Positions 183 to 47,610 of a stretch of 64,000 nt of DNA are shown here, piece after piece. The notes beneath the pieces were generated by a model, which was given only the letters and a program-made list of their open reading frames with translations, was not told the DNA's origin and searched no databases. The stretch comes from a virus. Numbering within the stretch: the stretch's first letter is position 1; each line of letters begins with the position of its first letter. The position numbers and the translations under genes were made by a program. The DNA is taken from the IMG/VR virus record IMGVR_UViG_3300045988_081423, one strand, 5' to 3'.

Positions 183-596
183 TTATGATTCAATACTGTA
201 TGCAATTACTTCTTGACACATCAAAAAGACAAAAGCATCTCTAATAAATTTATTAATATTTAGAATAACTACTAGTTCCTGCATGAAATAACTAAAAGAA
301 TTTTTTGGTTCAGCAAGTGTCTTCGCATACCAAATACGCGGTGTGTATGGGAACCGTTCGCCTTCTATTTCTATGCAAACATATCCACCGTAATACGCAT
401 TGCCTTTATCTATGGCTTCTATATATTTATATTTACCGTTCGACTTATCACAAATTTCTTTTAGAATTTTAAAACATACTTGAACGTCTTTTTCAGATGG
501 GACATAAATATTGCACTTATGTTCGACTGCATATTCGCATAAGTCATAATCGCTACGCTCAGAACAGAACTTAATTAATTCTTTTGCATTCTCCAT
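183..596 (-). CDS. hypothetical protein
   Basis: 137-aa ORF, last gene of the leftward operon. It shares a short A-x-E-x-x-CNI-x-V segment with the 2687-3076 product; no family recognised. Confidence 0.6.
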   Translation of the reverse strand: MENAKELIKFCSERSDYDLCEYAVEHKCNIYVPSEKDVQVCFKILKEICDKSNGKYKYIEAIDKGNAYYGGYVCIEIEGERFPYTPRIWYAKTLAEPKNSFSYFMQELVVILNINKFIRDAFVFLMCQEVIAYSIES

Positions 597-605
597 AATT
601 ACTCC

Positions 606-1679
606 TTAATCATATCTGATAAAATCTTTACCCATTACTTCATTAACCATATCAAACATTTTACCCATTCCTAATCCTTTACTGTTAGGAACCCATATCT
701 TTTCAGGGTTCCAATAATCAGTACCAATTTTTGATACATCATATTCGGGATTATCAATCCATTGACCACCATTGATGCAATATTCATATTGTCTAAGATG
801 AGTTTTAGCTAACCTTTGGAATCTTGTTTCTCCTTTTTCAAGATGTGCTCCGTACCCGCAATACACGCACCCGGTTCTATCACAGCCTGTGCAACGATAT
901 TTATTGTTTTCATCAAGAACTATATCACCATATACACTAGGAATTTCAATATGATTATTAAAAATCAATCCTAGAATATCTTGCTCAGTGAAAATACTCA
1001 TAGGCTTTGATTTCGGGCGCTTTGCCCCGTTTGAAGAATAAGCATTACATCCTGTGCCAATCCAAGACCTAGCTCTAAGGATAGACTCTTCTGCCATTTC
1101 TGCTGTGATTGCATAATTGCCCGTTTCTTTCTCATATTGTTTAGCTGGTTTCTTTTTTAAATAGTTGCAACATTTATTGCTAAACATAATTGGCAATTCC
1201 ATAAGTGGCAAATATTTCTTATGGCTAAATTGAACTTTACCATTATGAGGGTTAATATATTCTCCGTGCATTCTAATATCTTGCGCTCCACCGGGACAGA
1301 CTCTTGCTTCACAGATACATTGAGATATTTCTTTTGAAATAATCGGGTATCCATATTTCAAAATACACTGAAAGAAATTTATTTCTGGTCTTCTAATGAT
1401 AATGTTATTATCAGATTTAACAAACTGTTTTACTTCTGGATATTCAAGACCAGTATCAAAATAGACAACTGGAATATTTAAAAGTTCTGGAAATAATTTT
1501 GCAGCCTTCGTATGAATAATCCATTTTAATACTGTGCTATCCTTCCCACCAGAATAACTTAAATAGCATTTCCCATTTTCGTTATGATAAAACTTGGCTA
1601 TCATATTTATACAATGCTGTAGTTTAAAATCAACAGATTGTGCTTGTAAATTTTGTAAATCTTCGTATGAATAATCCAT
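606..1679 (-). CDS. PAPS-reductase-like PP-loop ATP pyrophosphatase (DndC/IbrA-like) with C-terminal Cys cluster
   Basis: 357-aa ORF with the PP-loop motif SYSGGKDST near the N-terminus. The C-terminal cluster CTGCDRTGCVYCGYG suggests an Fe-S or Zn site. Confidence 0.7.
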   Translation of the reverse strand: MDYSYEDLQNLQAQSVDFKLQHCINMIAKFYHNENGKCYLSYSGGKDSTVLKWIIHTKAAKLFPELLNIPVVYFDTGLEYPEVKQFVKSDNNIIIRRPEINFFQCILKYGYPIISKEISQCICEARVCPGGAQDIRMHGEYINPHNGKVQFSHKKYLPLMELPIMFSNKCCNYLKKKPAKQYEKETGNYAITAEMAEESILRARSWIGTGCNAYSSNGAKRPKSKPMSIFTEQDILGLIFNNHIEIPSVYGDIVLDENNKYRCTGCDRTGCVYCGYGAHLEKGETRFQRLAKTHLRQYEYCINGGQWIDNPEYDVSKIGTDYWNPEKIWVPNSKGLGMGKMFDMVNEVMGKDFIRYD

Positions 1680-1808
1680 AACCGTCCATTAACCAAACTG
1701 ATTAGTGGACAGACTAGAAATCTTCCCATAGCACTTTCGTACCGCAATAACTCTAGCCTTTACGTTGTACTATCACATATTTACAACAACCCTGCTTACA
1801 GGGATTGG

Positions 1809-2462
1809 TTACTCCTTTCTAAAATCCTTATAAAATATATCACAAGCAATGTCTCTTAAATATTGCTTGTTAATCACTATATTAATTAGTTTCTCTGGTC
1901 TAATACACTCGCTATACACTAATTTCATATATTGATTGATAACAAAGTATCTTCGTCCTTTATAACTTGATTGATTTAACATAAATTCTTCTACATTATC
2001 AAAATGTATTTTGTGTTTTTGTATCTCTGGAAAAACTGCCTCTTGCAATTCTTTTGAGTTTAACAGAAATGCTTCTATGCTATCTAAATTATAAATATCA
2101 TTAGTAAAAGATTTCGGGTAAATTATATTATAATATGTCGTCAATTTATTCTTATCAACAAACCATCCGACGCTATTACGATACCCAGCTTTATATAATT
2201 CAAAACTAAACGTATTCAAATCTCTTGTTAAATATTTTATAGCCGCCTTTTCATCAACAAGATATTCTTTGTTATATCTATTTAATATAACATCAATACC
2301 AGAGATATCTTGTTCTTTTGTTGGTTGTTTAACAGAGAAACCATGCTCATCATAGAGCATGGTCATATATTGGTGAATTACATTTTCTTGTTTTAAATCA
2401 AGTTGTCTGTTAGAATAAATTATATCACTTTTTGACGAACCTTCCACAGTGACATTCACCAC
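1809..2462 (-). CDS. hypothetical protein (weak PD-(D/E)xK-like signature)
   Basis: 217-aa ORF. GIDVIL ... VDEKA resembles a D...(D/E)xK nuclease core, but the match is weak. Confidence 0.5.
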   Translation of the reverse strand: MVNVTVEGSSKSDIIYSNRQLDLKQENVIHQYMTMLYDEHGFSVKQPTKEQDISGIDVILNRYNKEYLVDEKAAIKYLTRDLNTFSFELYKAGYRNSVGWFVDKNKLTTYYNIIYPKSFTNDIYNLDSIEAFLLNSKELQEAVFPEIQKHKIHFDNVEEFMLNQSSYKGRRYFVINQYMKLVYSECIRPEKLINIVINKQYLRDIACDIFYKDFRKE

Positions 2463-2610
2463 TTTCTTGCTCTTTAAATTCCTTACACATACACTTCGTA
2501 TCTTCGTTCTTAATTAGAGAACAAGGACAATAACCATCGTTTGACTTAATAATATTAGCAAACTCAATATGTTCCTCATCTGTCCAAGTGGGGTTTTTAA
2601 TAACACTCAT
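2425..2610 (-). CDS. small CxC-rich protein resembling the ferredoxin:thioredoxin reductase catalytic subunit
   Basis: 61-aa ORF with CPC-x9-CMC-x10-CHC, close to the CPC/CPC/CHC pattern of FTR catalytic chains. It lies in the same leftward operon as nrdDG. Confidence 0.5.
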   Translation of the reverse strand: MSVIKNPTWTDEEHIEFANIIKSNDGYCPCSLIKNEDTKCMCKEFKEQESGECHCGRFVKK

Positions 2611-2686
2611 GAAATAACCTCCATTATAATAATTAAAATTATTACGGGTAAAAACAAGTTAAGAAATGCCACTATAAAACTCTTAT

Positions 2687-3076
2687 TCATTGACCTACTT
2701 CCATAGTAATACCTTTTAGTTTATAGGGTCTAAACAAATATTCTAACACTCTATCAGCGTCGTCAATTACTATATTTTCAGCGCCAGAAAGTTCTTTAAA
2801 TCTAATTGCATCACTAGCTGTATAAATCTTCACAGTATGCTGTTCAAGTTCAAATCTACGTCTAAAAATATAATAATAAGAATACCCATCGTCTGAGCCA
2901 TCTTGCTTATCAATCACATAACCATCAGACTTAAATACATCGTCAAGAATAGCCCTCATATATTTTACGCCATTATAATAAGCAACTAAAATATTACAAT
3001 TGTTTTCAATGGCATATCTTGCTATTTGATAACTACGTCCTGTGCCACGAGAAGAAAGAATTTTAATCATATTCAA
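2687..3076 (-). CDS. hypothetical protein
   Basis: 129-aa ORF with an N-terminal SSRGTGRS P-loop-like stretch; no firm family. Confidence 0.55.
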   Translation of the reverse strand: MNMIKILSSRGTGRSYQIARYAIENNCNILVAYYNGVKYMRAILDDVFKSDGYVIDKQDGSDDGYSYYYIFRRRFELEQHTVKIYTASDAIRFKELSGAENIVIDDADRVLEYLFRPYKLKGITMEVGQ

Positions 3077-3080
3077 CCTC

Positions 3081-3410
3081 TTAAAATTCTAAATATAAAT
3101 CGTCGCTCGATTTTTCTAGTAAATCACCAAGCCATTCCATTCTATCACAAACTAAGTCATTATATGCTATTGTGGCTTCTTGAATAGTATCGGCATACTT
3201 AAAAATATACGCAGGGGTGCTATCTGGTTCTGAACCGTCAAATTGATTATCGGGGTCAAAGCCATCTTTGTCAGAATAAAATTTATGGTTCTTTACAATA
3301 CCTTTCGTTGGAACTGCCGTAAACAATCTGTTAGTATCATGATTAAAAAATCTATATGCAAAACCATAAACGGTTGTATCTTCTGGAACTGTATCTATCG
3401 TATAAATCAC
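3081..3410 (-). CDS. hypothetical protein
   Basis: 109-aa ORF tightly packed in the operon. Confidence 0.55.
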   Translation of the reverse strand: MIYTIDTVPEDTTVYGFAYRFFNHDTNRLFTAVPTKGIVKNHKFYSDKDGFDPDNQFDGSEPDSTPAYIFKYADTIQEATIAYNDLVCDRMEWLGDLLEKSSDDLYLEF

Positions 3411-3425
3411 ATATCTTCACCTCAA

Positions 3426-4085
3426 TTAAATATATCCATTAAAGTAATCATCAACAAATTTCTGTAATGTATCATAGGCCGCACCATCTTGGTGTGAATA
3501 CAATTCATCAAGAGCATCAGTCAAATCCTGTCTATCATAAGAATTGTCCTTGCGTTGGTTGTACTTATCACTGGTATAATTATACCAAGCAGTAATCATC
3601 TTGTCCACGGCCATATTCTTTAGCTTGCTTTCACCAATATCTTCATAATTATAAACGGTGTGCATAATATATGTTATGTCGTCAATCTGTTCCTGTGTTA
3701 AATTAAAGGTGTATGGAACGCTACTGTCTTTATCTTCAATATAAAATTTAACAAAGATATACCAATCAGTCGTGTCTTCCTTCACGCAAAAATCTTTATC
3801 CCATTTCTGATTCAAAGCTTTTGTAAGATTTCTACGAACGCAATTTTCATATCCATTTTCTTCAACATTATCATAGAATTGTTTAATGATGTTCTTATAT
3901 CTTTCGACAGCTACATCAACACAGCTATTATCCCAAGCATCTCTTTCATCATGGTAACTATAACAACCACAACGATAATTATTTGTTCCTATTGGCGCAA
4001 CTTCCCAACGAAATTGGCAGTCTGACTCAAATTTAATATCAAGATAAAGTGTCTTCGTATCAAAAATCCTCCAATTCTTTCTCAT
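3426..4085 (-). CDS. hypothetical protein, tandem paralog A
   Basis: Shares the blocks LYLD.(K/E)F, W...P.GT, YK..I..F.DNV, KFYI(E/D) and T.EQ with the neighbouring gene. The start was moved to an internal ATG (MRKNW) to limit overlap. Confidence 0.55.
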   Translation of the reverse strand: MRKNWRIFDTKTLYLDIKFESDCQFRWEVAPIGTNNYRCGCYSYHDERDAWDNSCVDVAVERYKNIIKQFYDNVEENGYENCVRRNLTKALNQKWDKDFCVKEDTTDWYIFVKFYIEDKDSSVPYTFNLTQEQIDDITYIMHTVYNYEDIGESKLKNMAVDKMITAWYNYTSDKYNQRKDNSYDRQDLTDALDELYSHQDGAAYDTLQKFVDDYFNGYI

Positions 4086-4587
4086 ACTCATCATCAAAAT
4101 ACTTCTGACAAAGAGAAACAATGATATCAATTACACCTTCATTGATTTCTTCTTTGTTTTTGTTCTGATAATCTTCTACCTTGTACATCATAAGGTCAAG
4201 GATTCTCTTCTGTTCTGGTGTTACATAGAAAGTAACAGACTGTTTCTCAAGATGATTGTCAATATAAAATTTAATATGAATGTCACCATGACCGCTATAA
4301 TTTCTGATTTCAAAACTTTTATTCCAGTCACTATTTAAAACATCATTAAGTACATCTTGAACAATATTCGCCTCTACCCCTATTACATTATCCATAAACA
4401 ACTCAATAACTTTCTTGTACTTATCAATAATCCAAGAAGTGTCGTCTTTTAGTTTGCCGGTAGTATAAGTCTCTTCACAACCATGCCACTCAAACTTTTC
4501 GTATGAACATTTTGTTCCTGTTGGAACAAGACTCCAATCATAATGCTCATCCGTATTAAATTCGACATCAAGATAAAGCATCTTCAT
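4060..4587 (-). CDS. hypothetical protein, tandem paralog B
   Basis: Same conserved blocks as paralog A. The start at MKMLYLD abuts the stop of the upstream gene. Confidence 0.55.
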   Translation of the reverse strand: MKMLYLDVEFNTDEHYDWSLVPTGTKCSYEKFEWHGCEETYTTGKLKDDTSWIIDKYKKVIELFMDNVIGVEANIVQDVLNDVLNSDWNKSFEIRNYSGHGDIHIKFYIDNHLEKQSVTFYVTPEQKRILDLMMYKVEDYQNKNKEEINEGVIDIIVSLCQKYFDDEYEKELEDF

Positions 4588-4589
4588 AT

Positions 4590-5057
4590 TTAATCTCCAT
4601 AACGACAATAGTAATCTACGATTGATTTATGACTAATTTCATGGTCTATATTCCAAGTGCTATGATAAGCATTTTCCCAAGGGTCTTGTTTGATAACAAT
4701 TTGTACTAAAGCACTTGTGGAATATTTGGACATACAATCAAGCATATCATTCATAAGCTGTTCATCTTCCAGGTTATTAATCTTATTTTTGAATTTATCT
4801 GGTGGAATCACCCCACAGCCATAATAGAAATATTCGTGATAAACCTCTTTAACGACTGGGCCAAAATCCCAAGCAAGCAGCTTTTCATTATAGCATGGTT
4901 TTTTCTTGTTTGCAAGAAATGTCACCTGTAAAAAATACATTTGTTTTGCAAGACGAAGATTGTTGGTTAAACGTCCTTGGGTATTCTCGTACCAAATAAT
5001 ATATTCTGCGACATCAAGTGCTTTGTAAGCCATATTATTCTTTACTCCATAATGCAA
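4590..5057 (-). CDS. Panacea (DUF4065, SocA/GepA-like) domain protein
   Basis: 155-aa ORF. LRLAKQMYFLQ ... LLAWDFGPVVKEVY matches the L.KL.Y..Q ... AW..GPV...Y signature of Panacea domains. Confidence 0.7.
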   Translation of the reverse strand: MHYGVKNNMAYKALDVAEYIIWYENTQGRLTNNLRLAKQMYFLQVTFLANKKKPCYNEKLLAWDFGPVVKEVYHEYFYYGCGVIPPDKFKNKINNLEDEQLMNDMLDCMSKYSTSALVQIVIKQDPWENAYHSTWNIDHEISHKSIVDYYCRYGD

Positions 5058-5299
5058 CGATTACTTAGTTTCTTATAAACATCCTCGTATAGCTCCCCTT
5101 TATCTCCGTTAAATGTGTATTCTGCGAGAGTATTATCTACCTTATTACTAATAATACACTTCCAATTTTGGAGAGCTTTACAAGACCATACAACAAAAGT
5201 GTCGTTAAACGAAATCTTTGTATTGCCAAATTTATGATTCCAAAGAATATATTCTACACGGCACTTATCCTGAAACTCACTCATACTACTAATTTTCAT
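5042..5299 (-). CDS. hypothetical protein, overlaps the Panacea gene by 16 nt
   Basis: 85-aa ORF translationally coupled to 4590-5057. Confidence 0.5.
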   Translation of the reverse strand: MKISSMSEFQDKCRVEYILWNHKFGNTKISFNDTFVVWSCKALQNWKCIISNKVDNTLAEYTFNGDKGELYEDVYKKLSNRCIME

Positions 5300-5344
5300 A
5301 AATCACCATAATGCCAACCCACCCAATCCCTTACTTGAAATTAA

Positions 5345-5848
5345 TTATTCACAATATAACTTAACTAAACCGTCTCTTAGTGTCTCTTTTAAATCAATTA
5401 CTCTTTGATTTCTACTCCCACGCCATTTTAGAGTAATATCATGCTGAGATTTAATATATTCCCCATCTACTAAGACATCAATATATTTAACAATCTCTTG
5501 AGTATCACTTCTATTCATTACTTCCTCATACTCATATCCAGTCCAACACCAAATATCTTTTTGAGGGAACTTTTCTTTTACTAATTTGACAAGGCGTGTG
5601 AGTTCTGGAATATTCTCTTTCTTTAGTGGGTCTCCACCACTAAGAGTAAGACCAGAAATATAATCATGATTTAGAGAATTAAGAATCTCATTTACTGTGT
5701 CATTAGTAAACTTGCTCCCGTAATTGATGTCCCAAGTTTCAGGATTTTGACATTCATCACAACAATGGTCACAACCACTCACCCAGAGAACAACCCTTAC
5801 TCCCTCTCCATTTGCAATGTCGTATTTTGTTATCTTAGCATAATTCAT
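5345..5848 (-). CDS. nrdG: anaerobic ribonucleotide reductase activating protein (radical SAM)
   Basis: 167-aa ORF with the N-terminal Cys cluster GCDHCCDECQN and LSGGDP. Its start overlaps the nrdD stop. Confidence 0.85.
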   Translation of the reverse strand: MNYAKITKYDIANGEGVRVVLWVSGCDHCCDECQNPETWDINYGSKFTNDTVNEILNSLNHDYISGLTLSGGDPLKKENIPELTRLVKLVKEKFPQKDIWCWTGYEYEEVMNRSDTQEIVKYIDVLVDGEYIKSQHDITLKWRGSRNQRVIDLKETLRDGLVKLYCE

Positions 5849-8049
5849 TACTGGACTCCTAGATGAACAACTCGCTCTTTAATCTCTTGTGTGCGACCTT
5901 GATTCCAGTCATTAGTACCAAGATAACCACAAGTTCTACGCACGATGTTCATTTTTGATTTATCACGATTTTTACAATTTGGACATTCCCAAACTAGCTT
6001 ACCATCATCATCTTTTACGATTTGGATTTCTCCGTCATAACCACAGACCTGACAGTAATCACATTTGGTATTTAGTTCTGCATACATAATGTTGTCATAA
6101 ATAAACTTGATTACAGAGAGAACAGCCTCGACATTATTATTCAAGTTAGGTATTTCTATATAACTTATGGCACCACCCGGAGATAGTTTCTGAAATTCGC
6201 TTTCAAATTTCAGTTTTGTAAAGGCATCAATCTTTTCGGTTACAACAACATGATAAGAGTTTGTAATATAATTTCTATCTGTAATACCCGGAATAACACC
6301 AAAACGCCTCTTTAGGCACTTAGCAAACTTGTATGTAGTGGATTCGATTGGGGAGCCATACAAACTATAATCAATGTTTTCAGAGGCTTTCCATTCATTA
6401 CACTTATCATTCATGTGTTGCATGATTTCAAGTGCGAACGGTTTTGCTTCATCACTTGTATGACTCTTGCCAGTCATAGCAAGAACGCATTCGTAGAGAC
6501 CAGCATATCCTAGACTAATGGTTGAATAACCGTCATACAGGAGCTTATCAATCTTCTCTCCTTTCTTTAGACGAGCAAGACCTCCATGTTGCCAGTGAAT
6601 TGGAGATACATCTGATAGAGTACCAAGAAGTCTATTATGGCGAATCTGTAGCGCCCTGTGACACAACTCAAGACGTTCGTCAAAAATCTTCCAGAATTTA
6701 TTAAAATCTTTGTTTGCACTTAAACCGACATCTGAAAGATTAATAGTAACAACGCCTTGATTAAAACGTCCGTAATACTTCTTTCCCTTAACCCAGTTAT
6801 TAGCATTCGCTAAATTCTCTGTCGTGCGGTCAGGAGTTAGGAACGAGCGACACCCCATACAGGGGAAGCAATCACCCTTATATTCCAGCATTTTCTTTTC
6901 TGAAATATAATCTGGAACCATACGCTTTGCTGTACATTTAGCGGCAAGCTCTGTTAGATAATAATACTTATCTCCCTCATGGATATTATCTTCTTCTAGT
7001 ACATAAAGAATCTTTGGGAATGCAGGAGTAATCCATACACCCTGTTCATTTTTAGTTCCCTCAATTCTTTGCTTTAGAACCTCTTCAATGAGCATTGCGA
7101 AGTCGTCTTTTTCTCTACCATCCTTTACTTCATTTAAATAAAGGAAAATAGATACAAATGGTGTCTGCCCATTAGTCGTCATTAAAGTATTAATTTGATA
7201 CTGAATTGTCTGAACTCCGCGTTTAATTTCTTCTTTTAGACGACCCTCTGTAATCTCATTAATCTGTTCATCCGTAGCATTTGAATTTAACAGAGCAACC
7301 TCTTCCATTACTTGCTTTCTGATTTTCTTTCTGCTAACATCAATAAATGGAACAAGATGCGCTAACGATTCGCTCTGTCCCCCATATTGATTGCTTGCTA
7401 CTTGTGCCATCACCTGAGTCGCAATATTGCAAGCAGTTGCAAAACTATGAGGTTTTTCAATTAGAGTACCGTTAATCACAGTACCATTTTGAAGCATATC
7501 TTCCAGATTGATTAAACAGCAGTTGTGCATCCGCTGAATAGCATAGTCAGAGTCATGAAAATGAATCAAACCTTGCTCATGTGCTTCACGAATGTCCTTT
7601 GGAAGAATCAGACGATTTACAATATCACGGCTTACTTCACCAGCAATATAATCACGTTGCGTAGCTGCAATTTTAGGATTCTTATTACTATTTTCTTGAA
7701 TTACGTCTTCATTTACGCCATCAACAATAGACATGATTTTGCCATCAGTCGTATTTCCGTTTCTAGCAAGCTGGCGCTCATAACGATAACGAATATACGT
7801 TTTTGCGACATCATAATAACCGCGTTGCATCAGAAGTGACTCAATTGTATCTTGAATATTTTCGACAGATACGGCGCAATCTTGTGCTTTAAAATTATTA
7901 TATACTTCTGTGGCGATTGTCTGAATTGCAATCTGCGGCATTGCTTTCCCACCGCTTTTTTCTACTTCGTCGCTTGCTTTTTGAATTGCAAGCGTTATCT
8001 TTCCTTTTTGGAACTTGTCTTCACGACCATCACGCTTAATTACATTCAT
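5848..8049 (-). CDS. nrdD: anaerobic (class III) ribonucleoside-triphosphate reductase
   Basis: 733-aa ORF with an N-terminal ATP-cone (VIKRDGREDKF), a C-terminal Zn ribbon (CDYCQVCG ... CPNC) and the glycyl-radical motif RRTCGYLG. Confidence 0.92.
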   Translation of the reverse strand: MNVIKRDGREDKFQKGKITLAIQKASDEVEKSGGKAMPQIAIQTIATEVYNNFKAQDCAVSVENIQDTIESLLMQRGYYDVAKTYIRYRYERQLARNGNTTDGKIMSIVDGVNEDVIQENSNKNPKIAATQRDYIAGEVSRDIVNRLILPKDIREAHEQGLIHFHDSDYAIQRMHNCCLINLEDMLQNGTVINGTLIEKPHSFATACNIATQVMAQVASNQYGGQSESLAHLVPFIDVSRKKIRKQVMEEVALLNSNATDEQINEITEGRLKEEIKRGVQTIQYQINTLMTTNGQTPFVSIFLYLNEVKDGREKDDFAMLIEEVLKQRIEGTKNEQGVWITPAFPKILYVLEEDNIHEGDKYYYLTELAAKCTAKRMVPDYISEKKMLEYKGDCFPCMGCRSFLTPDRTTENLANANNWVKGKKYYGRFNQGVVTINLSDVGLSANKDFNKFWKIFDERLELCHRALQIRHNRLLGTLSDVSPIHWQHGGLARLKKGEKIDKLLYDGYSTISLGYAGLYECVLAMTGKSHTSDEAKPFALEIMQHMNDKCNEWKASENIDYSLYGSPIESTTYKFAKCLKRRFGVIPGITDRNYITNSYHVVVTEKIDAFTKLKFESEFQKLSPGGAISYIEIPNLNNNVEAVLSVIKFIYDNIMYAELNTKCDYCQVCGYDGEIQIVKDDDGKLVWECPNCKNRDKSKMNIVRRTCGYLGTNDWNQGRTQEIKERVVHLGVQ

Positions 8050-14038: not shown

Positions 14039-14058
14039 TACGATTGGGGAATTGTAGA

Positions 14059-14682
14059 ATGAATTATAAAACTCCAATTCGTAATGATGGAGAAATGGTA
14101 GAGCAACAGATTCTACTGTCTGGCAATAACTCCATCAAGAAAAATCTAGCAATTTATCAACGTAAGATTTTGATTAATCAAGAAATTACGAATGAATCTG
14201 TCACAGAAGCTATATATTATCTATATACGCTTATGGACTTGGATAGAGAAGAGGGAGTAGAGAAGAGTCCAAAACCTATTGATATTCTTCTAAATACTCC
14301 GGGTGGTTCTGTATGGGACGGTCTCATTCTGGTTTCTCTGATTGAACAGATGAAAGACATGGGATACATTATCAATACAACTGCTATTGGTACTGCCGCT
14401 AGTATGGGTTTTATTATCTTTATTACTGGTTCCAATCGTTGCTCTTATCGTCATGCACAATTTATGTTACATGATATTTCTACAATGATGGGTGGCAAAG
14501 TAAAAGACCTAGAAGAATCTATGGAAGACCTAAAGAAGTGTCAAAAGCAAGTGTTTGACATTATTAAGAAATATACTCATATTCCAGATGAGCAACTAGA
14601 TGATTGGGTTAAGCACAAACGGGACGTTTTCTTTTACCCAGATGAAGCTGTTAAATGTGGTATTGCAGATAAGGTGCTTTGA
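14059..14682 (+). CDS. clpP: ClpP-family serine protease
   Basis: LNTPGGSVWDG, GTAASMGFII (Ser) and MLHD (His), plus a C-terminal Asp region, match ClpP/S14 motifs. It lies outside the head module. Confidence 0.8.
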   Translation: MNYKTPIRNDGEMVEQQILLSGNNSIKKNLAIYQRKILINQEITNESVTEAIYYLYTLMDLDREEGVEKSPKPIDILLNTPGGSVWDGLILVSLIEQMKDMGYIINTTAIGTAASMGFIIFITGSNRCSYRHAQFMLHDISTMMGGKVKDLEESMEDLKKCQKQVFDIIKKYTHIPDEQLDDWVKHKRDVFFYPDEAVKCGIADKVL

Positions 14683-15773: not shown

Positions 15774-15850
15774 CGCAGAATAGCCCAATCAGGTACGGCG
15801 CTTGGTTCATACCCAAGAGATTCTTCGTTCAAATCGAAGTTCTGCACCCA
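15774..15850 (+). tRNA. tRNA with anticodon CAT (Met, initiator-like or Ile2), CCA encoded
   Basis: 77-nt cloverleaf. Acceptor GCAGAA/TTCTGC with a C1-A72 mismatch, U8, D-arm with GG loop. Anticodon stem CTTGG/CCAAG with loop TTCATAC, 5-nt variable loop, T-arm CTTCG-TTCAAAT-CGAAG, then C-CCA. Confidence 0.75.
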
Positions 15851-20373: not shown

Positions 20374-20507
20374 TATATTGTTATAGACATAATTTGAAAT
20401 TTAACTTACAGGTGTGCACCCGTATGTGCATGAAAGGAAAACATTATGACATTTGGTAAAAATGCGAAGAATAATCACCTTTATATCTGTAAAGAAGGTG
20501 ATGTAGT

Positions 20508-20693
20508 ATGAAGTATGAGAAGGAAAAATATTTCTCTTGCTATTCTCCTAATCTTAAAGAATATCTGGAAAGAAATGGTTTTAAGCCTATTACTTCGTTT
20601 GTACACATCAGAGAGAATAAGACTTGTTGGGTGTTTGAAAAAGTGCCTGAACTATCTATATATCTTGAGCAGTGGACTCGTAATCGCAAGTAA
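20508..20693 (+). CDS. small hypothetical protein
   Basis: 61-aa ORF with an AGAAGGTGA RBS. The alternative frame 20515-20700 is judged spurious. Confidence 0.5.
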   Translation: MKYEKEKYFSCYSPNLKEYLERNGFKPITSFVHIRENKTCWVFEKVPELSIYLEQWTRNRK

Positions 20694-20705
20694 AGGGTAA
20701 ATTAT

Positions 20706-21086
20706 ATGAAAAACATTGTAAGAAATTTTTCTGTTGCTATCGTAGTATTTGTGACTGCATTTATCACAGTTTATTATTCTGTTGTGTATGCAACAAAGAA
20801 ACAGATTATATTTGATGGCTCGGATATTCTAATAATTATTTTCTTTTGCTTATTATCTTTGATGGTCGTGTTTATGCTACTTTATATCAATTCTAAATTA
20901 AACTCATTCTCTAATGCTCTATCTGACATATCCAATAAAATTGATATATCAGAAGAAAACATGATAAATTTAGAAAAGAGTACACAGAGAATTATATTAA
21001 AGGAAGTAAAGGAAAATAGGGAATTTAAGGGAAAAATTTTAGAAAGGATTGAGCATGAAGAGAAATCCGAACAGCAATCGGAGTAA
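20706..21086 (+). CDS. membrane protein (two predicted TM helices plus coiled coil)
   Basis: 126-aa ORF with hydrophobic segments VAIVVFVTAFITVYYSVVY and ILIIIFFCLLSLMVVFMLLYI. It contains direct-repeat copy 1. Confidence 0.6.
   Translation: MKNIVRNFSVAIVVFVTAFITVYYSVVYATKKQIIFDGSDILIIIFFCLLSLMVVFMLLYINSKLNSFSNALSDISNKIDISEENMINLEKSTQRIILKEVKENREFKGKILERIEHEEKSEQQSE
20906..20976 (+). repeat. 71-bp perfect direct repeat, copy 1 (coding)
   Basis: ATTCTCTAATGCTCTATCTGACATATCCAATAAAATTGATATATCAGAAGAAAACATGATAAATTTAGAAA is identical to 21328-21398. Confidence 0.9.
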
Positions 21087-21336
21087 AAGATGGGCAGAAA
21101 GAAATTGTCTATCCTCTGATAGATGTGTGTCTTATGTAAAGGATTTATGTGAAGCTTATGGCCTTAAATATAAAATTTCTGGTGATAAGCTTTTTGTGGA
21201 TTCTGATGGGATTTCCTATCGGGTTTATCCTGACTATGAAAATATATGTATAATTGCAGTTAATAAAATAACTGGTGAGAAAAAATGGTATGATGGGGAT
21301 TCATGTTGGGTTGATTTTGTACTAGATATTCTCTAA
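21055..21336 (+). CDS. hypothetical protein bracketed by the 71-bp repeats
   Basis: 93 aa from the ATG at 21055. Its stop codon lies inside repeat copy 2. Confidence 0.55.
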   Translation: MKRNPNSNRSKRWAERNCLSSDRCVSYVKDLCEAYGLKYKISGDKLFVDSDGISYRVYPDYENICIIAVNKITGEKKWYDGDSCWVDFVLDIL

Positions 21337-21398
21337 TGCTCTATCTGACATATCCAATAAAATTGATATATCAGAAGAAAACATGATAAATTTAGAAA
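21328..21398 (+). repeat. 71-bp perfect direct repeat, copy 2 (mostly non-coding)
   Basis: Identical to 20906-20976, 422 bp downstream. Confidence 0.9.
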
Positions 21399-21404: not shown

Positions 21405-21433
21405 TTGACAATTTCTATATATTGTGCTATATT
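21405..21433 (+). promoter_or_regulatory. sigma-A-type promoter of the agr-like cassette
   Basis: TTGACA, a 17-nt spacer, then TG-extended TATATT, immediately after repeat copy 2. Confidence 0.65.
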
Positions 21434-21481
21434 AACAATGGAAGCAAATAATTCCATAAAATAACATAAGGAGATATTGTT

Positions 21482-21979
21482 ATGAATATTCCACTAAGTT
21501 TGTTAATTTATAATCCGATTGAAGCGTATACATTAATTTTATTGGGCGATATTATTACAGGCAATGATACGAAATTTAACAAGAAGAGCATTGTGGCTTT
21601 ATGGGTATTTGGAACTGTTAATTTTGTGATACAGTTTTTGCCAAATTTAGTATATGGTGAAAACTGCTTCCTTTTTGTTTCTTTTATTTCAAATTATTTA
21701 ATTATACCAGTATCAATGCTATTTTTCTATAATTTGGTTTCTTTTAAAATTAATTATTTTACTTGTTTAATGTGTCAAATAATAAATTGTTTGTTTATAT
21801 TAATTATAGTAAGTATATTTAATAGTATTGCATATTCTTATAATTTGTTTTGTCCTGCAAACAGATTTCATGAGTTTATTTCTAATTTTGTAATATTCTT
21901 CATGCAAATCATGTTATATACTATTATAAAACATAGGAGATTTTACTATGAAAAATGTTGTAAAAATCATCGCAAATAA
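21482..21979 (+). CDS. polytopic membrane protein (about 5 TM), no soluble domain
   Basis: 165-aa very hydrophobic ORF. Its 3' end overlaps the AgrD-like ORF. It could be an AgrC-sensor-like or immunity/export protein, but this is unproven. Confidence 0.6.
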   Translation: MNIPLSLLIYNPIEAYTLILLGDIITGNDTKFNKKSIVALWVFGTVNFVIQFLPNLVYGENCFLFVSFISNYLIIPVSMLFFYNLVSFKINYFTCLMCQIINCLFILIIVSIFNSIAYSYNLFCPANRFHEFISNFVIFFMQIMLYTIIKHRRFYYEKCCKNHRK

Positions 21980-22079
21980 TTCTGTTGAGAAGGCTTTTAC
22001 ATCTTTTAATTATTATCAGCCTAAAATGCCAAATTCTCTAATGGAAAAGGCTATTAACGAAAATAAGAAGGAGAACTAA
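21948..22079 (+). CDS. agrD: AgrD-like autoinducing peptide precursor (43 aa)
   Basis: AGGAG RBS with 8-nt spacing. MKNVVKIIANNSVEKAFTSFNYYQPKMPNSLMEKAINENKKEN has an amphipathic leader, a candidate 5-residue ring SFNYY, then QPKMPNSL, which resembles the clostridial QPEEPKSL recognition tail. Confidence 0.55.
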   Translation: MKNVVKIIANNSVEKAFTSFNYYQPKMPNSLMEKAINENKKEN

Positions 22080-22118
22080 TCCGACTTATATTATTATAGA
22101 CATTATAGAATAATATAG

Positions 22119-22153
22119 GGGAGTCGGCTTGTTAGCTGGCTCCCTATTTTTTT
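22119..22153 (+). terminator. Rho-independent terminator between the agrD-like and agrB genes
   Basis: Stem GGGAGTCGGC/GCTGGCTCCC (two G-U pairs) with a 6-nt loop, then TATTTTTTT. Confidence 0.75.
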
Positions 22154-22174
22154 GTAAATAAGGAATATTCTGTT

Positions 22175-22780
22175 ATGGATATTTTTAGATATATTGAAGA
22201 CATATCTTATAAACTCGGTTTAAAGGTTGCGAACTATTTCCATGAGGACAGTGATGGAATTGAAGAGACGCAATACGGTATGTTTGCTATTTTAAGCTTT
22301 TTGTTTGAATTTGGAACTGGGCTTATTATATCGCTTATTTTTGGATATGTCAAGTATTTTCTTGTATTTCAAATTACTTATTGTTTTCTACGTTCTGTTT
22401 GCGGTGGTGAACACTGTAAGACATTTGCTTCTTGTTGGGCAGTAACAAACATTATCTCATTTATTGGAAGTATGATGGCTATTTTATTATCCGTAAATAA
22501 TATGTTTGTAATGATTGGAGTTATTATTACATTTCTGTCATCTGTTGATATGTTTTATATTATTCCAAAGCCAAGCGAAAATTCTCCTAGTAGAGGAAGT
22601 AGAGATATTGAGTTTAAAAGACGTTATATTAAGGGAACTTGTGTGCTAATTTTCTTATCTTGTATTTTGGTGTTTTTTAATATGCAATTTGTTTCTGCTT
22701 CTATTTGCTCTGCCTATATTATGTGTTATATTATGCTTTCCAAATATGGAAAGAAATTTATGAATATGTTTAAGTTTTAA
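22175..22780 (+). CDS. agrB: AgrB-family membrane peptidase
   Basis: 201-aa polytopic ORF. LRSVCGGEHCKTFASCW matches the AgrB R-x3-G-x-H-x6-C catalytic His/Cys spacing (S. aureus RRHAHGAHAPSSFWC). The later PKPSENSP...KRRY loop also fits. Confidence 0.8.
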   Translation: MDIFRYIEDISYKLGLKVANYFHEDSDGIEETQYGMFAILSFLFEFGTGLIISLIFGYVKYFLVFQITYCFLRSVCGGEHCKTFASCWAVTNIISFIGSMMAILLSVNNMFVMIGVIITFLSSVDMFYIIPKPSENSPSRGSRDIEFKRRYIKGTCVLIFLSCILVFFNMQFVSASICSAYIMCYIMLSKYGKKFMNMFKF

Positions 22781-22877: not shown

Positions 22878-23225
22878 AATTGTAGTCGTACAATTGTGGG
22901 ACGCTATAGGCTCTTTGTGTTCTATGATTGTAGGTATCTACAAACTATAAGAGTTTGTAGTTTCCATTAAATAGCCTACCAGACTTAGTTACCAGAAATG
23001 ATAACTACGATATTTAGGTTATGACACCCTCGGTTGACGCAACAGACCGTCGCTCTGTCGTATATATTTAAGTTAGGTTGGAGTAATAGTAGCCTTGTGA
23101 TATATACGCTAAAGCCTTTATATCATTGTCGAGTTGAGGTCGGAAAAGCTATGTGGTAATAGTATAGCAATACGCACAACCATTACATAAGTAATGGAGT
23201 TATTTTTACGAAAGGGGTGTCTAGT
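22878..23225 (+). ncRNA. candidate IscB omega-RNA (guide plus scaffold)
   Basis: About 350 nt without a credible ORF, directly 5' of iscB on the same strand and dense in hairpins (22938-22960, 22986-23007, 23098-23125, 23181-23196). Its position matches known IscB omega-RNAs. Confidence 0.6.
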
Positions 23226-24482
23226 ATGGTATATGTATTGAATATTGATGGACAACCGCTTATGCCAACTACTAGGCACGGTAAAGTCAAACATCTTCTA
23301 AAAGATGGTAAGGCTAAAGTAGTTAAGCGTTGTCCATTCACAATTAAACTTCTATACGAGACTCCTAATTGCACACAAGATTTAACTCTTGGGATTGATA
23401 CAGGAAGTGGCGCAATAGGAACTGCCGTTTCTACCGATGATGGCGAAATAGTTTATATGTCGGAAGTAGTTGTTAGAAATGACATTACTGACAAAATGAC
23501 TCAAAGGGCCAAATACCGCAGAAATAGACGTAGCAGAAAAACTCGTTATAGAAAAGCAAGATGGCTAAATCGCAAAAATTCAATTAAGAAGGATAGATTT
23601 AGTCCCACGATGGTAAGTAAACTCCATAGCCACGTTAAAGAAATAGAATATATCAAATCTATTCTCCCTATAACTACTATGGTCTTTGAAACAGGAACAT
23701 TTGATACTTACCTTATGAAAAATCCAAGCCTTGTAAATGAAAATGTAAGACATTGGGGATACCAAAAAGGAACAAATTATGGGTTTGAAAATACCAAGGC
23801 TATGGTTTTAAATCGAGATAATTATACTTGTCAGTATTGCAAAGGTAAACATAAAGATAGTAAACTGGAAGTTCATCATATTGTGTTTCGCAGCAAACAT
23901 GGTTCAGACGAAGAAAGTAATTTGATTACACTTTGTCATACTTGCCATAAGGCGTTGCATAGTGGTAAAATTAGTCTTAAATTAGAAGGTAAGGTCAAAG
24001 GGAATCTAAAATATGCTACACAGATGAATAGTATTCGTAAACAATTATTTAGAATCTACTCGGAAGCAATTGAAACTTTTGGTTATATAACAAAGGCAAA
24101 TCGTCTAAAACTTGGAGTAGATAAAGAGCATTTTTATGACGCTTGTGTTATTGCAACACATGGAAATAAATTTAGCGTAAGATGCAATTTATACAAAAAG
24201 AAATGTGTTTCAGATGGGGATTTTCAACAGACTAAGGGAGTTCGTTCTGAGCAGCGCATTCCAACGTGTAAAATTCAGGGGTTCAGAAAGTTTGATAAGG
24301 TGAGATATTTTGGTAAAGAATATTTTATAAAAGGAAGGCTTTCTACTGGGTATGCAATACTTATGGATATAGATGGTAATAAATCCGATTTTTCTTATAT
24401 GCCGAAAGGTTTTAAAACGCCTAAAATTATAAATCTAAAAAGATTAGAAGCTCGTTCATCGTGGATAGTAATTTTTAAATGA
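23226..24482 (+). CDS. iscB: IscB RNA-guided endonuclease (PLMP, split RuvC, HNH)
   Basis: DGQPLMPT; LGIDTGSG; RAKYRRNRRSRKTRYRKARWLNR; MVFETGTFD; CQYC..EVHHIVFRSKHGSDEESNLITLCHTCHKALH; HFYDACVIA; C-terminal FDKVRYFGKEYFIKGR..GY. RBS AAAGGGG. Confidence 0.88.
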   Translation: MVYVLNIDGQPLMPTTRHGKVKHLLKDGKAKVVKRCPFTIKLLYETPNCTQDLTLGIDTGSGAIGTAVSTDDGEIVYMSEVVVRNDITDKMTQRAKYRRNRRSRKTRYRKARWLNRKNSIKKDRFSPTMVSKLHSHVKEIEYIKSILPITTMVFETGTFDTYLMKNPSLVNENVRHWGYQKGTNYGFENTKAMVLNRDNYTCQYCKGKHKDSKLEVHHIVFRSKHGSDEESNLITLCHTCHKALHSGKISLKLEGKVKGNLKYATQMNSIRKQLFRIYSEAIETFGYITKANRLKLGVDKEHFYDACVIATHGNKFSVRCNLYKKKCVSDGDFQQTKGVRSEQRIPTCKIQGFRKFDKVRYFGKEYFIKGRLSTGYAILMDIDGNKSDFSYMPKGFKTPKIINLKRLEARSSWIVIFK

Positions 24483-33688: not shown

Positions 33689-35371
33689 GTGAGATGTTTG
33701 CCAAGAAAAAAGAAAGTTGAACAAGAAACATTATCTGAAAAACAAGTTAATGATGTTCTAAATGCGTATGATTATTTTATGAATTTCTCTGATTCTTATA
33801 ATCGTAGCTATTATAGTGGCGGCGCTGATTATAATACGCCAGATACTATTAATAGAAGGCTAAAAGACATTAACTTAACACAAGTTGATACTACCGTAGC
33901 GGATATTGAAAAGGCTTTAAAGAACGCGAAGGATTCAGAGGAAATTCTTTCTAATTATGCACAGACGCTTGAGATTACAAATATGTCCTTTAAGCGTCTA
34001 ACGCAATATTTGCCAAATCTGGCGGCATTTAACTTAACTTTTGACCCAATCAATGTCACAAAAGAATCTGAGCTAAAATCTAAAGAATTTAAGAAAGATT
34101 TAGCTAAAGTAGATGAGTTTTGTAACAAGTTCGATTATCGCACAGAATTTGCGACTGCTATGCGTCAGTGTTTTAGACAAGGTGCAATGTTTAGTGTTCT
34201 CCGTGATGAAGGAGACAAATATACTCTTCAAGAGCTTCCAAAACAATTTTGCAAGATTACTGGGCGTTTTGACTATGGTTATTTGTACGACTTTGATATG
34301 ACATGGTTTCTAAATATGGATGGTGTAGATATTGATATGTACCCCACTATCTTCAAACGTATGCTAAATCGGATTCAAAAAAGCCATAACAAACCTTATG
34401 ACCCTGCAAGGCGTTTGCAATCAAGAAATACTGGTTTTAATTATTGGCAACAGACTTCTCCTGAAAATGGGTTTTGGTGTTTTAAGCTCGACCCAGAACT
34501 AGCAACTATTTTACCTTATTATTCTGGTATTCTTGGTAATGCTAGTTTCCAGCCTGTTGTTAGAGGTCTACAACAGGATAAATACTTTATTGATGCTTCC
34601 AAGATTCTAGTTGGTATCCTTGGATTCAATAAAGAACAGAAGAGTGGTCAGGTTGCCAACTCTATCAATATGACACCTGAGATGATTGGTAAATTCTTAG
34701 GCGTTGCTCGTAAAGGGCTGAATAGCCAGATTGGCCTAGCTGTGCTGCCCACTGACGATGTTAAAGCTGTAGATTTTAGTATTTCAAATACCAATTCCGA
34801 TGTTGACTATGCAAGCTCTGTTGTTAAGCAGAGTGTTGCGTCTAGTGAAGCACTGTTTGGAACTGAGAAGCTAAATAGTCACCAGTCTAAACTTGCGTCT
34901 GCTATTGATAATAATGTCATTGAAGCCCTGTATCCTGCTTTTGCTAATTTCATGGAGTTTTTCATTAACCAGCGAACCGAGAAATATAAATTCAAGATTC
35001 GTTTCCATGATGAAAATGTTCCAGACCAAAAAGCAGAACGAAAGGCACTATTCAATGATTTTTCTAAAATTGGATTTGTAGATATGCAGCTTGCTGCAAG
35101 ATGTAATGATATGAACGTCTTTGAGTATGCAAGACATCTACAAATTTCTAAGAGTTGTTTTGATGTTAAGGGAATGGTTATTCCTCTAAATCAATATCTA
35201 ACTCCCCCTGTTCAAACTAGAACTGGCACTAGCACAACAACAAAGCCACCAGAGAATCCTCTTACTAAAGGTAGCGTTGGTAGACCACCAAAACCGGAGA
35301 GTGATTCTGAGTCTACGGAAGCAAGTTGGGCTAGGGGTTCTAATGAACTCAAACAAGAATTTAACGAATAA
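33689..35371 (+). CDS. portal protein (by position and size)
   Basis: 560-aa ORF immediately after terL. The start codon is uncertain (GTG 33689 or TTG 33698). Confidence 0.55.
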   Translation: MRCLPRKKKVEQETLSEKQVNDVLNAYDYFMNFSDSYNRSYYSGGADYNTPDTINRRLKDINLTQVDTTVADIEKALKNAKDSEEILSNYAQTLEITNMSFKRLTQYLPNLAAFNLTFDPINVTKESELKSKEFKKDLAKVDEFCNKFDYRTEFATAMRQCFRQGAMFSVLRDEGDKYTLQELPKQFCKITGRFDYGYLYDFDMTWFLNMDGVDIDMYPTIFKRMLNRIQKSHNKPYDPARRLQSRNTGFNYWQQTSPENGFWCFKLDPELATILPYYSGILGNASFQPVVRGLQQDKYFIDASKILVGILGFNKEQKSGQVANSINMTPEMIGKFLGVARKGLNSQIGLAVLPTDDVKAVDFSISNTNSDVDYASSVVKQSVASSEALFGTEKLNSHQSKLASAIDNNVIEALYPAFANFMEFFINQRTEKYKFKIRFHDENVPDQKAERKALFNDFSKIGFVDMQLAARCNDMNVFEYARHLQISKSCFDVKGMVIPLNQYLTPPVQTRTGTSTTTKPPENPLTKGSVGRPPKPESDSESTEASWARGSNELKQEFNE

Positions 35372-47090: not shown

Positions 47091-47610
47091 ACAAAAGTTC
47101 AAAGAGAGTATTCCTAAAGATGTGGCAGTAATTAGACTGCATGATAGCGCAAGTGGTTTTGGACAAGATAGTAGGTCAACAAGATTTTCTATGAAATCTC
47201 CGTTTGACTTTATCTTGTTCAAAACTCCTTGTATGTATTGTTTAGAACTAAAATCAACAGACAAGAAAAGTTTTTCTTTTGAACGTGAGAAACCAACGAA
47301 AGAAAATCCTACTAAACGAGAAATTCATTGGCATCAAATTCAAGCTCTTACTGAGTATAATAAATATTGTAATTGTATATGTGGTTTTGTGTTAGACTTT
47401 AGAAATGATGGAACTTATTTCTTGAGTATCAAAGATTTTAATAAATTTAAAGAAGAATCAACTAAGGTTTCAATAAATATTCAGGACTGTATTGCGCATG
47501 GTGCTGTTCAAATAGATAAAAAATTAAAAAAGAAATATTATAGCTACGATGTGGCAAAGTTATTAGATAAGATTGGAAGTGACGAAATTGGGAAGAAGAA
47601 CCGTATATAA
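47041..47610 (+). CDS. RecU-like Holliday junction resolvase (PD-(D/E)xK)
   Basis: FEQKFKESIPK..., SPFDFILF ... CLELKST gives a D...E-x-K core typical of RecU. Confidence 0.6.
   Translation: MAGSRRLTLMNVGKIFEQKFKESIPKDVAVIRLHDSASGFGQDSRSTRFSMKSPFDFILFKTPCMYCLELKSTDKKSFSFEREKPTKENPTKREIHWHQIQALTEYNKYCNCICGFVLDFRNDGTYFLSIKDFNKFKEESTKVSINIQDCIAHGAVQIDKKLKKKYYSYDVAKLLDKIGSDEIGKKNRI

Follow-up and report, generated by a model that had tools for sequence, protein, structure and literature searches.

A human-gut phage cassette that joins AgrB and a candidate threonine-type AgrD precursor to a hypervariable membrane protein of a new family

Propeptide genes that overlap the 3' end of their upstream gene, or lie in frame with it, and nevertheless use their own internal start are known from fsrB-fsrD of Enterococcus faecalis and comQ-comX of Bacillus subtilis, and the polymorphism of the pheromone in comQXP extends to the upstream gene. 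For the autoinducing peptides (AIPs) of Agr systems, the literature searched names Cys, and rarely Ser, as the ring nucleophile. A second membrane protease is required for the biosynthesis of AIPs; in Staphylococcus aureus, the specificity of this protease is group-limited. The export step of AIP biosynthesis is unknown in the literature. In S. aureus, the AgrD leader is removed by MroQ, a membrane protease of the CPBP/Abi type (PMC9388083). In the literature searched, phage agr genes are described from a single C. difficile phage only and have no known function; they form the agr3 locus of phiCDHM1 with the gene order agrC-agrB-agrD (Hargreaves et al. 2014, PMC3901668). Here, we studied an Agr-type cassette at positions 21,405 to 22,780 of the virus record IMGVR_UViG_3300045988_081423; the whole stretch of 64,000 nucleotides is referred to as the window. 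A preceding reading of the letters alone (the original prediction) had described the cassette as an AgrD-like peptide, AgrB and an orphan polytopic membrane protein, and had mentioned Agr homologues from a C. difficile phage. The latter is correct, and phiCDHM1 is the only phage precedent found in the literature searched.

Taken together, we consider it highly probable that the phage combines AgrB with a Thr-type AgrD and a dedicated membrane partner that is matched to the peptide allele. The partner, a 165-aa protein denoted TM in the following, belongs to a previously unrecognised family. Two conclusions are firm: AgrB and an AgrD-type precursor are present and conserved, and TM is a functional protein, tied both physically and evolutionarily to the peptide. 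The open reading frames (ORFs) 21482-21979, 21948-22079 and 22175-22780 are all present on the + strand. Respective features of the cassette are:

21405-21433, + strand: sigma-A-type promoter, TTGACA-17 nt-TATATT with an upstream TG (extended -10), agreeing with the consensus at 11 of 12 positions
21482-21979, + strand: TM, five-helix membrane protein of 165 aa, new family, allele-matched partner of the peptide
21568-22030, + strand: hypervariable, pherotype-like island, from TM residue ~30 to 165 and on through leader and core of AgrD
21935-21939, + strand: Shine-Dalgarno sequence AGGAG of agrD, within the TM coding sequence and 8 nt before the ATG
21948-22079, + strand: agrD-type precursor of 43 aa, matching TIGR04223
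21999-22013, + strand: predicted five-residue macrocycle TSFNY, Thr18-Tyr22
22087-22117, + strand: AT-rich inverted repeat with a conserved TATTATAGACATTATAGA motif, 5' of the terminator
22118-22153, + strand: intrinsic terminator/attenuator between agrD and agrB, an 11-12 bp G+C-rich stem (hairpin 22118-22145) followed by a T-run
22175-22780, + strand: agrB, membrane cysteine peptidase/cyclase of 201 aa, PF04647
22412-22414 and 22433-22435, + strand: codons of the catalytic residues His80 and Cys87

First, we evaluated the assignment of AgrB. The 201-aa product matches the Pfam model PF04647 with 91 bits (cut-off 23; E = 8e-26; model positions 3-181 of 185). For the NCBIfam equivalog PRK01100 it scores 48 bits, which is below the cut-off of 282. 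Judged by these profiles, the product is a member of the AgrB family and not an orthologue of the PRK01100 subgroup. H80 and C87, which are 7 residues apart, align with H77 and C84 of S. aureus AgrB, in an alignment that also includes phiCDHM1 AgrB. Along with G77, G78, P131 and K132, both residues are invariant across 7 phage AgrBs of 22-38% identity. The AgrB family search proposed in the original prediction thus returns a match above the curated cut-off, and the predicted His-Cys spacing is that of AgrB. The name AgrB is already carried by the IMG annotation in these gut-phage assemblies. Likewise, a near relative in NCBI nr that is 74% identical to the AgrD studied here (DAE49274.1) is entered as 'MAG TPA: AgrD [Caudoviricetes sp.]'. 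That is, the bare presence of agrBD in these phages is not new, since both genes are already named in public annotation.

Next, we studied the peptide precursor and the register of its ring. The 43-aa ORF matches the AgrD model TIGR04223 with 23.3 bits (cut-off 19; E = 5.2e-5), where residues 1-32 are placed on model positions 7-37 of 38. It shows the three-part layout of AgrD, i.e., a leader MKNVVKIIANNSVEKAF, a predicted core T18-S-F-N-Y22 (TSFNY) and a charged follower Y23-QPKMPNSLMEKAINENKKEN (YQPKMPNSLMEKAINENKKEN) with a PxxP motif, and its gene is located 95 nt upstream of agrB. The AgrD organisation that had been proposed for this 43-codon ORF with its AGGAG is in agreement with these results, as is the clostridial-like tail, because the QPKMPxSL follower is common to the AgrD of phiCDHM1 (QPKMPKSL).

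To compare cores, we collected the peptides of 28 unique complete cassettes, 24 database peptides and six peptides from partial cassettes or fusion proteins, which yields 52 distinct AgrD-like sequences. The motif F-T, four variable residues, Y, (Q/S/T)-P-K-x-P is found in 51/51 motif-fitting peptides, such that Thr18 and Tyr23 are invariant (51/51). Ser19 is the first variable position: S is observed in 14 of 29 cores and is replaced by I, A, F, T, N or M in the others, and it therefore cannot be the conserved nucleophile. The five-residue ring SFNYY with a Ser nucleophile, as put forward in the original prediction, is rejected on this comparison.

The spacing of the prolines provides a second line of evidence. 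Counted from Thr18, they are found at +7 and +10. In the AgrD peptides of C. perfringens (CLWFT-HQPEEP) and Listeria (CFMFV-YEPKSP), prolines occupy +7 and +10 with respect to the ring Cys. The spacing to PxxP thus puts Thr18 at the canonical position of the ring Cys. The record of phiCDHM1 AgrD reads ...TT-SVWYI-N-QPKMPKSL, which aligns a Ser with Thr18, and distant family members show T or S alternately at this position. Our best prediction is a ring of Thr18-Tyr22 (TSFNY) with the Thr hydroxyl as nucleophile and an AgrB cut before Tyr23; a six-residue ring that ends at Y23 is a possible alternative. Five residues before the cleavage site, where AgrD peptides have Cys or rarely Ser, the peptides studied here show an invariant Thr. 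Given that Thr retains the hydroxyl, the precursor would be filed as an AgrD variant and not as a non-member.

The arrangement of the cassette was compared among related loci (labelled L001 and so forth). Both promoter hexamers are conserved in all 21 aligned loci. As originally noted, the peptide gene lies upstream of agrB and overlaps the 3' end of the gene of the 165-aa protein; the overlap is 32 nt in the +1 frame. With agrD ahead of agrB, the canonical gene order is reversed. In the cassettes compared, the agrD start codon invariably falls within the TM gene, 17-44 nt before its 3' end and in the +1 frame, and in nearly all of the 28 cassettes a purine-rich Shine-Dalgarno-like stretch is found 6-13 nt upstream of its ATG. 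The terminator that had been described as separating the peptide gene from agrB is also recovered: it shows a folding z = -3.3, and all 12 base pairs are retained in 10 diverged loci. The divergent loci L053 and L054 have non-homologous hairpins with T-runs at the same position, and on this comparison the terminator is independently re-created in divergent phages. No promoter-like site is found in the 30 nt between terminator and agrB.

Directly 5' of the terminator, the AT-rich inverted repeat (22087-22117) is kept across loci and forms a hairpin in the RNA fold. It includes a 17-nt motif, TATATTNTTATAGACAT, that occurs exactly twice in the window, i.e., at 22087-22103 and at 20374-20390, upstream of a gene for a 61-aa protein. 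We considered whether this motif is a repeated phage promoter and rejected the idea, given only 2 copies and 6% of shuffles that reach that number. The motif could be an operator or an RNA element.

We then investigated TM. AlphaFold2 models five helices (predicted local distance difference test, pLDDT, of 82), in accordance with the roughly five membrane segments without kinase domain that had been expected. From the positive-inside rule, the N-terminus is predicted outside and the C-terminus inside. Model and per-segment charge leave almost no cytoplasmic mass, since the cytoplasmic loops comprise 5-7 residues. A word-indexed search provided 53 homologues of 94-192 aa, none of them with a Pfam domain, and an exhaustive profile search of 1.84 billion protein representatives provided 78 relatives, all of at most 206 aa and none with a kinase domain or kinase fusion. 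For searches of the locus itself, the broad family alignment was too diverse as a query. Conserved polar residues are N11, P12, E14, N47, Q51, E131, N135 and Q142. Among these, N11, E14, Q51, E131 and N135 are intramembrane and conserved family-wide even below 30% identity, while helices 3 and 4 are the variable ones. An identical 165-aa protein is on record as A0A8S5PKY4, uncharacterised, from 'Siphoviridae sp. ctOSJ35'.

Several assignments of TM to known families were tried and rejected. The remote link of 21482-21979 to AgrC sensor domains, which the original prediction had suggested to check by topology and remote homology, is not supported: hhalign assigns a probability of 0.2% to the comparison with the phiCDHM1 AgrC sensor, and the relatives are short and free of kinases. 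A diverged AgrB paralogue obtains the same hhalign probability (0.2%). For CPBP/MroQ, holin, SpoIIGA-like and other Pfam families, only scattered sub-threshold matches are found in 27 members; here, PF02517 (CPBP/MroQ) shows no match at E <= 10, and the family has no invariant His, which the CPBP motifs EExxxR, FxxxH and HxxxN would call for. A sequence profile search of the PDB with TM found nothing, and Foldseek of the TM model against the PDB yields a best E of 1.0 with a TM-score below 0.35. Against BFVD, Foldseek returns the identical A0A8S5PKY4, followed by the uncharacterised phage protein A0A8S5S981 (probability 0.94, TM-score 0.61, 15% identity). The other BFVD matches are weak and include a 429-aa viral protein named 'AgrB' (A0A8S5R960; E = 1.4), whose sequence was not retrievable.

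The label 'orphan' does not fit TM, which forms a dedicated family beside agrD, either overlapping or fused. Wherever the context is readable, TM is found only directly upstream of an AgrD-like ORF and AgrB, and the triad, along with the order of the phage genes around it, is kept even where AgrB identity drops to 34%. At least 9 representatives of the family have TM and AgrD in a single reading frame in which the internal Met is retained. GGGG is kept at both fusion junctions for which the DNA was read. Furthermore, the C-tail 'YEKxCKxNRK' of TM is an out-of-frame reading of the AgrD leader 'MKN..K..'.

These data also bear on the question whether the small ORF and TM have no function, i.e., whether they are remnants or have arisen by chance next to a captured agrB. 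Some relatives point in this direction. TM is cut to 70-83 aa in L003 and L015 with agrD and agrB intact, L005 lacks TM and agrD and is left with agrB, L016 and L075 lack TM and agrD and have an N-terminally truncated AgrB, and no intact cassette ORF was detected in L019. Because some related phages carry a truncated TM or lack TM and agrD, the cassette is dispensable. On the other hand, the small ORF with its Shine-Dalgarno sequence and its motif is seen again throughout 28 unique cassettes and 52 distinct peptides, and given this recurrence it is not a chance product. The overlap is kept in these cassettes as well, the triad persists to the identity given above, the curated AgrD model is matched, and TM is under purifying selection, with a ratio of nonsynonymous to synonymous divergence (dN/dS) of 0.07-0.49 within an allele class. 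The conservation data effectively refute this explanation.

Next, we compared the variability along 22 aligned loci. The mean pairwise nucleotide identity is 0.51-0.71 within the island and 0.85-0.93 on both flanks. On the protein level, the mean pairwise identity is 0.47 for TM and 0.87 for AgrB, the latter with a dN/dS of 0.13-0.19 within an allele class. There are at least 29 variants of the peptide core. TMs that share a core are 0.94 identical (minimum 0.79), while TMs with different cores are 0.44 identical (maximum 0.70). A Mantel test finds TM and core to be correlated (rho 0.48, p = 0.0005), which is not observed for AgrB and core (rho -0.07). TM often shows less synonymous divergence than the adjacent agrB when compared within an allele class (in one pair 0 vs. 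0.25), and the TM-agrD unit therefore moves as a cassette between phage backbones. These backbones belong to gut phages that are otherwise about 90% identical. As far as the alignments tell, TM and peptide core are one hypervariable, co-inherited module beside a conserved AgrB, and by analogy this pattern is the population signature of staphylococcal agr groups or of toxin-immunity pairs.

The first of these analogies suggests that TM is a kinase-less receptor of the mature peptide, such that the cassette would be a complete, kin-specific, arbitrium-like system between phages. Binding of the peptide to TM might then change a process at the membrane, e.g., the timing of lysis, the exclusion of superinfecting phages or the activity of another phage protein or of a host kinase. 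In favour of a receptor, TM and the core form a single hypervariable island within conserved DNA, TM being the sole other hypervariable gene at the locus, and the alleles are discrete, with purifying selection within each class, as seen for the staphylococcal agrD/agrC-sensor region. Moreover, TM is encoded 5' of the attenuator and would thus be expressed at the level of the precursor rather than of the enzyme, and the databases searched returned no close relative of AgrB or TM from bacteria, which counts against a simple mimicry of host signals. The details of TM argue differently. It has no output domain, i.e., its loops are too short to hold one and its C-tail is the out-of-frame agrD leader, and it has no similarity to the AgrC sensor. 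The invariant polar residues reside in helices that do not vary, which is the reverse of a ligand-specific pocket, and an in-frame fusion to its own ligand precursor would be odd for a receptor.

The scan for a kinase or regulator also weighs against a receptor. No histidine kinase or LytTR/Response_reg domain was found in the ~50 ORFs scanned in the window, which covers about 64 kb of a genome of roughly 75-80 kb, nor does the precomputed Pfam annotation list a kinase or such a regulator among the neighbouring genes of 12 related loci. As had been noted before, no AgrC or AgrA is visible in the window, such that a complete agrBDCA system is not found in it. The earlier description of a sensor-less B/D pair holds with regard to kinase and regulator but has to be amended for the membrane partner, which is phage-encoded and allele-matched. 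All in all, a receptor role of TM is the main competitor of the explanation favoured below, and we regard it as possible but rather unlikely. Still more doubtful is the extended statement that TM is a new kinase-less receptor for a Thr-lactone or homodetic peptide and that a gut-phage lineage with dozens of pherotypes has independently invented an arbitrium-like system.

The second analogy would make the peptide a toxin or bacteriocin-like cyclic peptide and TM its co-varying immunity protein. A small polytopic membrane protein that is co-transcribed with a peptide precursor is in line with this idea, and so are the co-diversification of the pair and its exchange as a cassette, as known from toxin-immunity loci. 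However, the precursor matches a model of AgrD signalling peptides, and its predicted 5-residue ring is typical of AIPs. Neither a bacteriocin-type leader nor a transporter is present, and the known immunity families, CPBP among them, are not matched by TM. We consider this explanation very improbable.

Instead, we tentatively favour a role of TM in maturation or export, i.e., in cleaving off the leader and/or translocating what AgrB produces, although we put its probability somewhat short of even. This role is favoured because the known upstream neighbours that are coupled or fused to a propeptide gene (fsrB-fsrD, comQ-comX) are processing enzymes, because the invariant residues of TM are polar, intramembrane and located in the non-variable helices, because TM has no cytoplasmic output, and because AIP biosynthesis needs a second substrate-selective membrane protease as well as an unidentified exporter. 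The promoter at 21405 would transcribe TM together with the gene of the 43-aa AgrD precursor, whose translation would be coupled to that of TM. The terminator may pass only a part of the transcription to agrB, such that much precursor and TM but little enzyme would be made. AgrB (His80/Cys87) would then remove the follower YQPKMPNSL... and close the Thr18-Tyr22 ring, presumably via Thr. The product would be a Thr-lactone, or else a homodetic ring, provided that cleavage of the leader immediately in front of Thr is followed by an O-to-N acyl shift. TM would act on the peptide at the membrane as a second maturation step, i.e., as a phage-supplied functional analogue of MroQ, and the exchange of TM and core alleles as a cassette would produce pherotype-like groups in the phage population. 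The statement as a whole, with this role of TM included, is likewise a tentative one, to which we give a little less than an even chance.

A number of observations weigh against this explanation. It is drawn from sequence data, and an AgrB-made Thr-lactone has no precedent in the literature searched, where only Cys and rare Ser are described. TM has no similarity to MroQ/CPBP or to known peptidases or transporters, and no catalytic motif is recognised in it. In the AlphaFold2 model of a natural TM-AgrD fusion, the core is not docked onto TM, where a core pLDDT of about 50 renders the model uninformative on this point. The co-variation of TM and core is in part a trivial outcome of their physical overlap and linkage. 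Furthermore, TM diverges far more than the peptide, i.e., a single-residue change of the core is accompanied by 30-40% TM divergence, which the tracking of a substrate alone does not explain. Finally, S. aureus MroQ is constant while the receptor AgrC varies between groups, and by this analogy the hypervariability of TM would point to a receptor.

The phage itself provides the context for a further explanation. The window is the genome of a tailed phage that encodes portal, tape measure and tail proteins, a terminase-like protein, NrdD, a ClpP protease and several HNH endonucleases. Its structural landmarks are:

33689-35371: portal protein
49935-51785 and 53160-57470: tape measure protein, in two parts

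The only close GenBank relative is MT835481.1, a 74.7-kb 'Bacteriophage sp.' from human faeces that comes without annotation and shows 88.7% nucleotide identity across the left half of the queried stretch. Its cassette carries the NFAH allele, where the one studied here has SFNY. The AgrB cluster at 90% identity has 416 member sequences, and the exact 165-aa TM is present on 54 contigs. The phage belongs to a common human-gut phage lineage. Cassette neighbours on related contigs include SPbeta-type YonJ_N and YonG_N domains. The nearest cultured relatives are Enterocloster bolteae phages, i.e., phages of Lachnospiraceae, with a portal identity of 30%. A tyrosine recombinase (Phage_integrase, 43.9 bits) is encoded amid the structural genes at 47573-48631 and would fit a temperate lifestyle. 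Exact peptide patterns, by which distant relatives may be missed, were searched for twice in 185,579 GTDB species genomes, and no prophage or bacterial copy of TM was found.

Lachnospiraceae are rich in agr loci, and the peptide might activate or jam AgrC-type receptors of the host. The polymorphism would then track host pherotypes, and TM would be an accessory that, e.g., protects or insulates the producer. This is supported by the relationship to phages of Enterocloster, by the promoter of host type, by the QPKMPxSL follower that is shared with clostridial-type AgrD, as in phiCDHM1, and by the fact that no phage kinase or regulator was found. Against it stands the search for bacterial relatives of AgrB and AgrD, which returned the phage clade alone: its matches include neither a close bacterial AgrB nor a bacterial AgrD with the F-T-xxxx-Y motif. 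A host-directed signal also leaves unexplained the coupling of agrD to a membrane protein that is specific to phages and varies together with it. Nor can a cognate receptor be named for this explanation. We consider this explanation improbable. The idea of the original prediction that the phage emits or jams a host signal thus keeps its place among the candidates but, given the allele-matched TM, is no longer the only one.

Some further elements of the genome were recorded. The tape measure gene is interrupted by a group I intron (RF00028, 51731-52072, 54.8 bits), and an ORF for an HNH/D5-like endonuclease follows 3' of the intron at 52100-53092. Auxiliary genes at 183-8049 (- strand), 14044-14682 and 15774-15847 encode NrdD, a PAPS-reductase-like protein, the ClpP protease and one tRNA, where the match to the anaerobic ribonucleotide reductase NrdD amounts to 685 bits.

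Upstream of the cassette, three small genes (20508-21336) are found without exception, even in phages with 34% AgrB identity. They encode the 61-aa protein mentioned above, which has a DUF5659 domain, a coiled-coil protein of 126 aa with a membrane anchor, and a 95-aa protein whose N-terminus is basic. The three genes could be functionally linked to the cassette, e.g., as a cytoplasmic output. A perfect 71-nt direct repeat (20906-20976 and 21328-21398) flanks the 3' end of the 126-aa gene and the 95-aa ORF (21049-21336). The second copy is a duplicated internal piece of the 126-aa gene and is located just 5' of the cassette promoter. L011 and L051 are without the segment between the repeats, as expected from recombination between them, such that the 95-aa gene is dispensable in these two phages.

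Downstream of the cassette, a skipping-rope RNA (RF02924, 22788-22867, 47.7 bits; gathering score 36.7) starts 8 nt past the agrB stop. In L041 and L044 it likewise follows agrB, and in L048 one more gene lies in between. The RNA may be part either of the phage backbone or of the cassette at its 3' end. An IscB-type element follows directly, with a 421-aa RRXRR and HNH protein (ORF 23217-24482; Pfam 173 and 46 bits) and a full-length HEARO/omega-RNA (RF02033, 22930-23144, E = 4e-15) whose 76.3 bits are just under the gathering score of 83. This element is absent from MT835481 and present 3' of agrB in L045. In the distant relative L024 (6647-7759), an IS605-type TnpB (OrfB_IS605 and Cas12f1-like TNB domain) is inserted exactly between agrD and agrB, and in L022 and L048 a DUF6273 gene is found 3' of agrB. 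Because of the TnpB, the IscB element and the DUF6273 genes, we regard the DNA around the cassette as an insertion hot spot. The 6A RNA motif (RF02925, 52-65 bits) occurs in L041 (8364-8415), L044 (5977-6028) and L049 (5790-5841), about 1.5-2 kb past the 3' end of the cassette.

With regard to novelty, the literature searched holds no description of the TM family, of its coupling or fusion to agrD, of the invariant Thr, of the conserved attenuator or of the at least 29 cores exchanged as cassettes, all of which appear to be undescribed. An invariant Thr in place of Cys or Ser in an Agr peptide would extend the known cyclase chemistry of AgrB. The TM family is a candidate for the missing maturation or export step of AIP biosynthesis or for a new type of receptor. 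A pherotype-like polymorphism that is swapped between near-identical phages would imply frequency-dependent selection on a phage-borne signal. If TM were indeed a receptor, arbitrium-like signalling would have been invented independently from AgrB/AgrD parts.

Finally, we relate the cassette to the known systems. Like the cassette, phiCDHM1 encodes a phage-borne AgrB and AgrD without AgrA, and its AgrD resembles the one studied here in having the QPKMPxSL follower, no Cys and a hydroxyl residue (Ser) aligned with Thr18. It differs by its full-length 453-aa AgrC kinase, for which no counterpart was found in the window, and by its gene order C-B-D on one strand next to lysis genes, whereas here agrD precedes agrB with a terminator in between. 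TM, which is coupled to agrD here, is unrelated to phiCDHM1 AgrC, and the two AgrBs are too distant for tblastn at E = 1e-3.

Staphylococcal agr groups share with the cassette discrete core alleles that co-vary with an adjacent polytopic membrane protein amid conserved DNA, and their AgrB shows the same distance of 7 residues between catalytic His and Cys. Here, in contrast, AgrB is conserved and the variable membrane protein is not a kinase sensor. We count at least 29 core variants vs. 4 in S. aureus, the predicted ring has Thr instead of Cys, there is no AgrA/autoinduction circuit, and the genes are phage-borne. In fsrB-fsrD and comQ-comX, the propeptide gene shares an overlap or a reading frame with the 3' end of its upstream neighbour, as agrD does with TM. 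The upstream genes, however, encode known enzymes (an AgrB homologue and an isoprenyl transferase, respectively), while TM is neither of the two and a separate AgrB is encoded downstream.

MroQ resembles the role proposed for TM as an integral membrane protein that acts after AgrB on an AgrD intermediate with sequence-dependent specificity. The mroQ gene lies upstream of the agr locus and not within the agrBDCA operon, and MroQ is invariant between groups (PMC9388083), whereas TM is coupled to agrD and hypervariable. The two proteins show neither sequence nor profile similarity. Arbitrium (AimP/AimR) of SPbeta-like Bacillus phages has no homology to the cassette, i.e., it uses a linear, Sec-exported peptide and a cytoplasmic TPR receptor, while the peptide here is of Agr type. 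SPbeta-type genes with YonJ_N and YonG_N domains are nevertheless also found in the phages studied here, and both systems have in common a phage-encoded peptide with many alleles among related phages.

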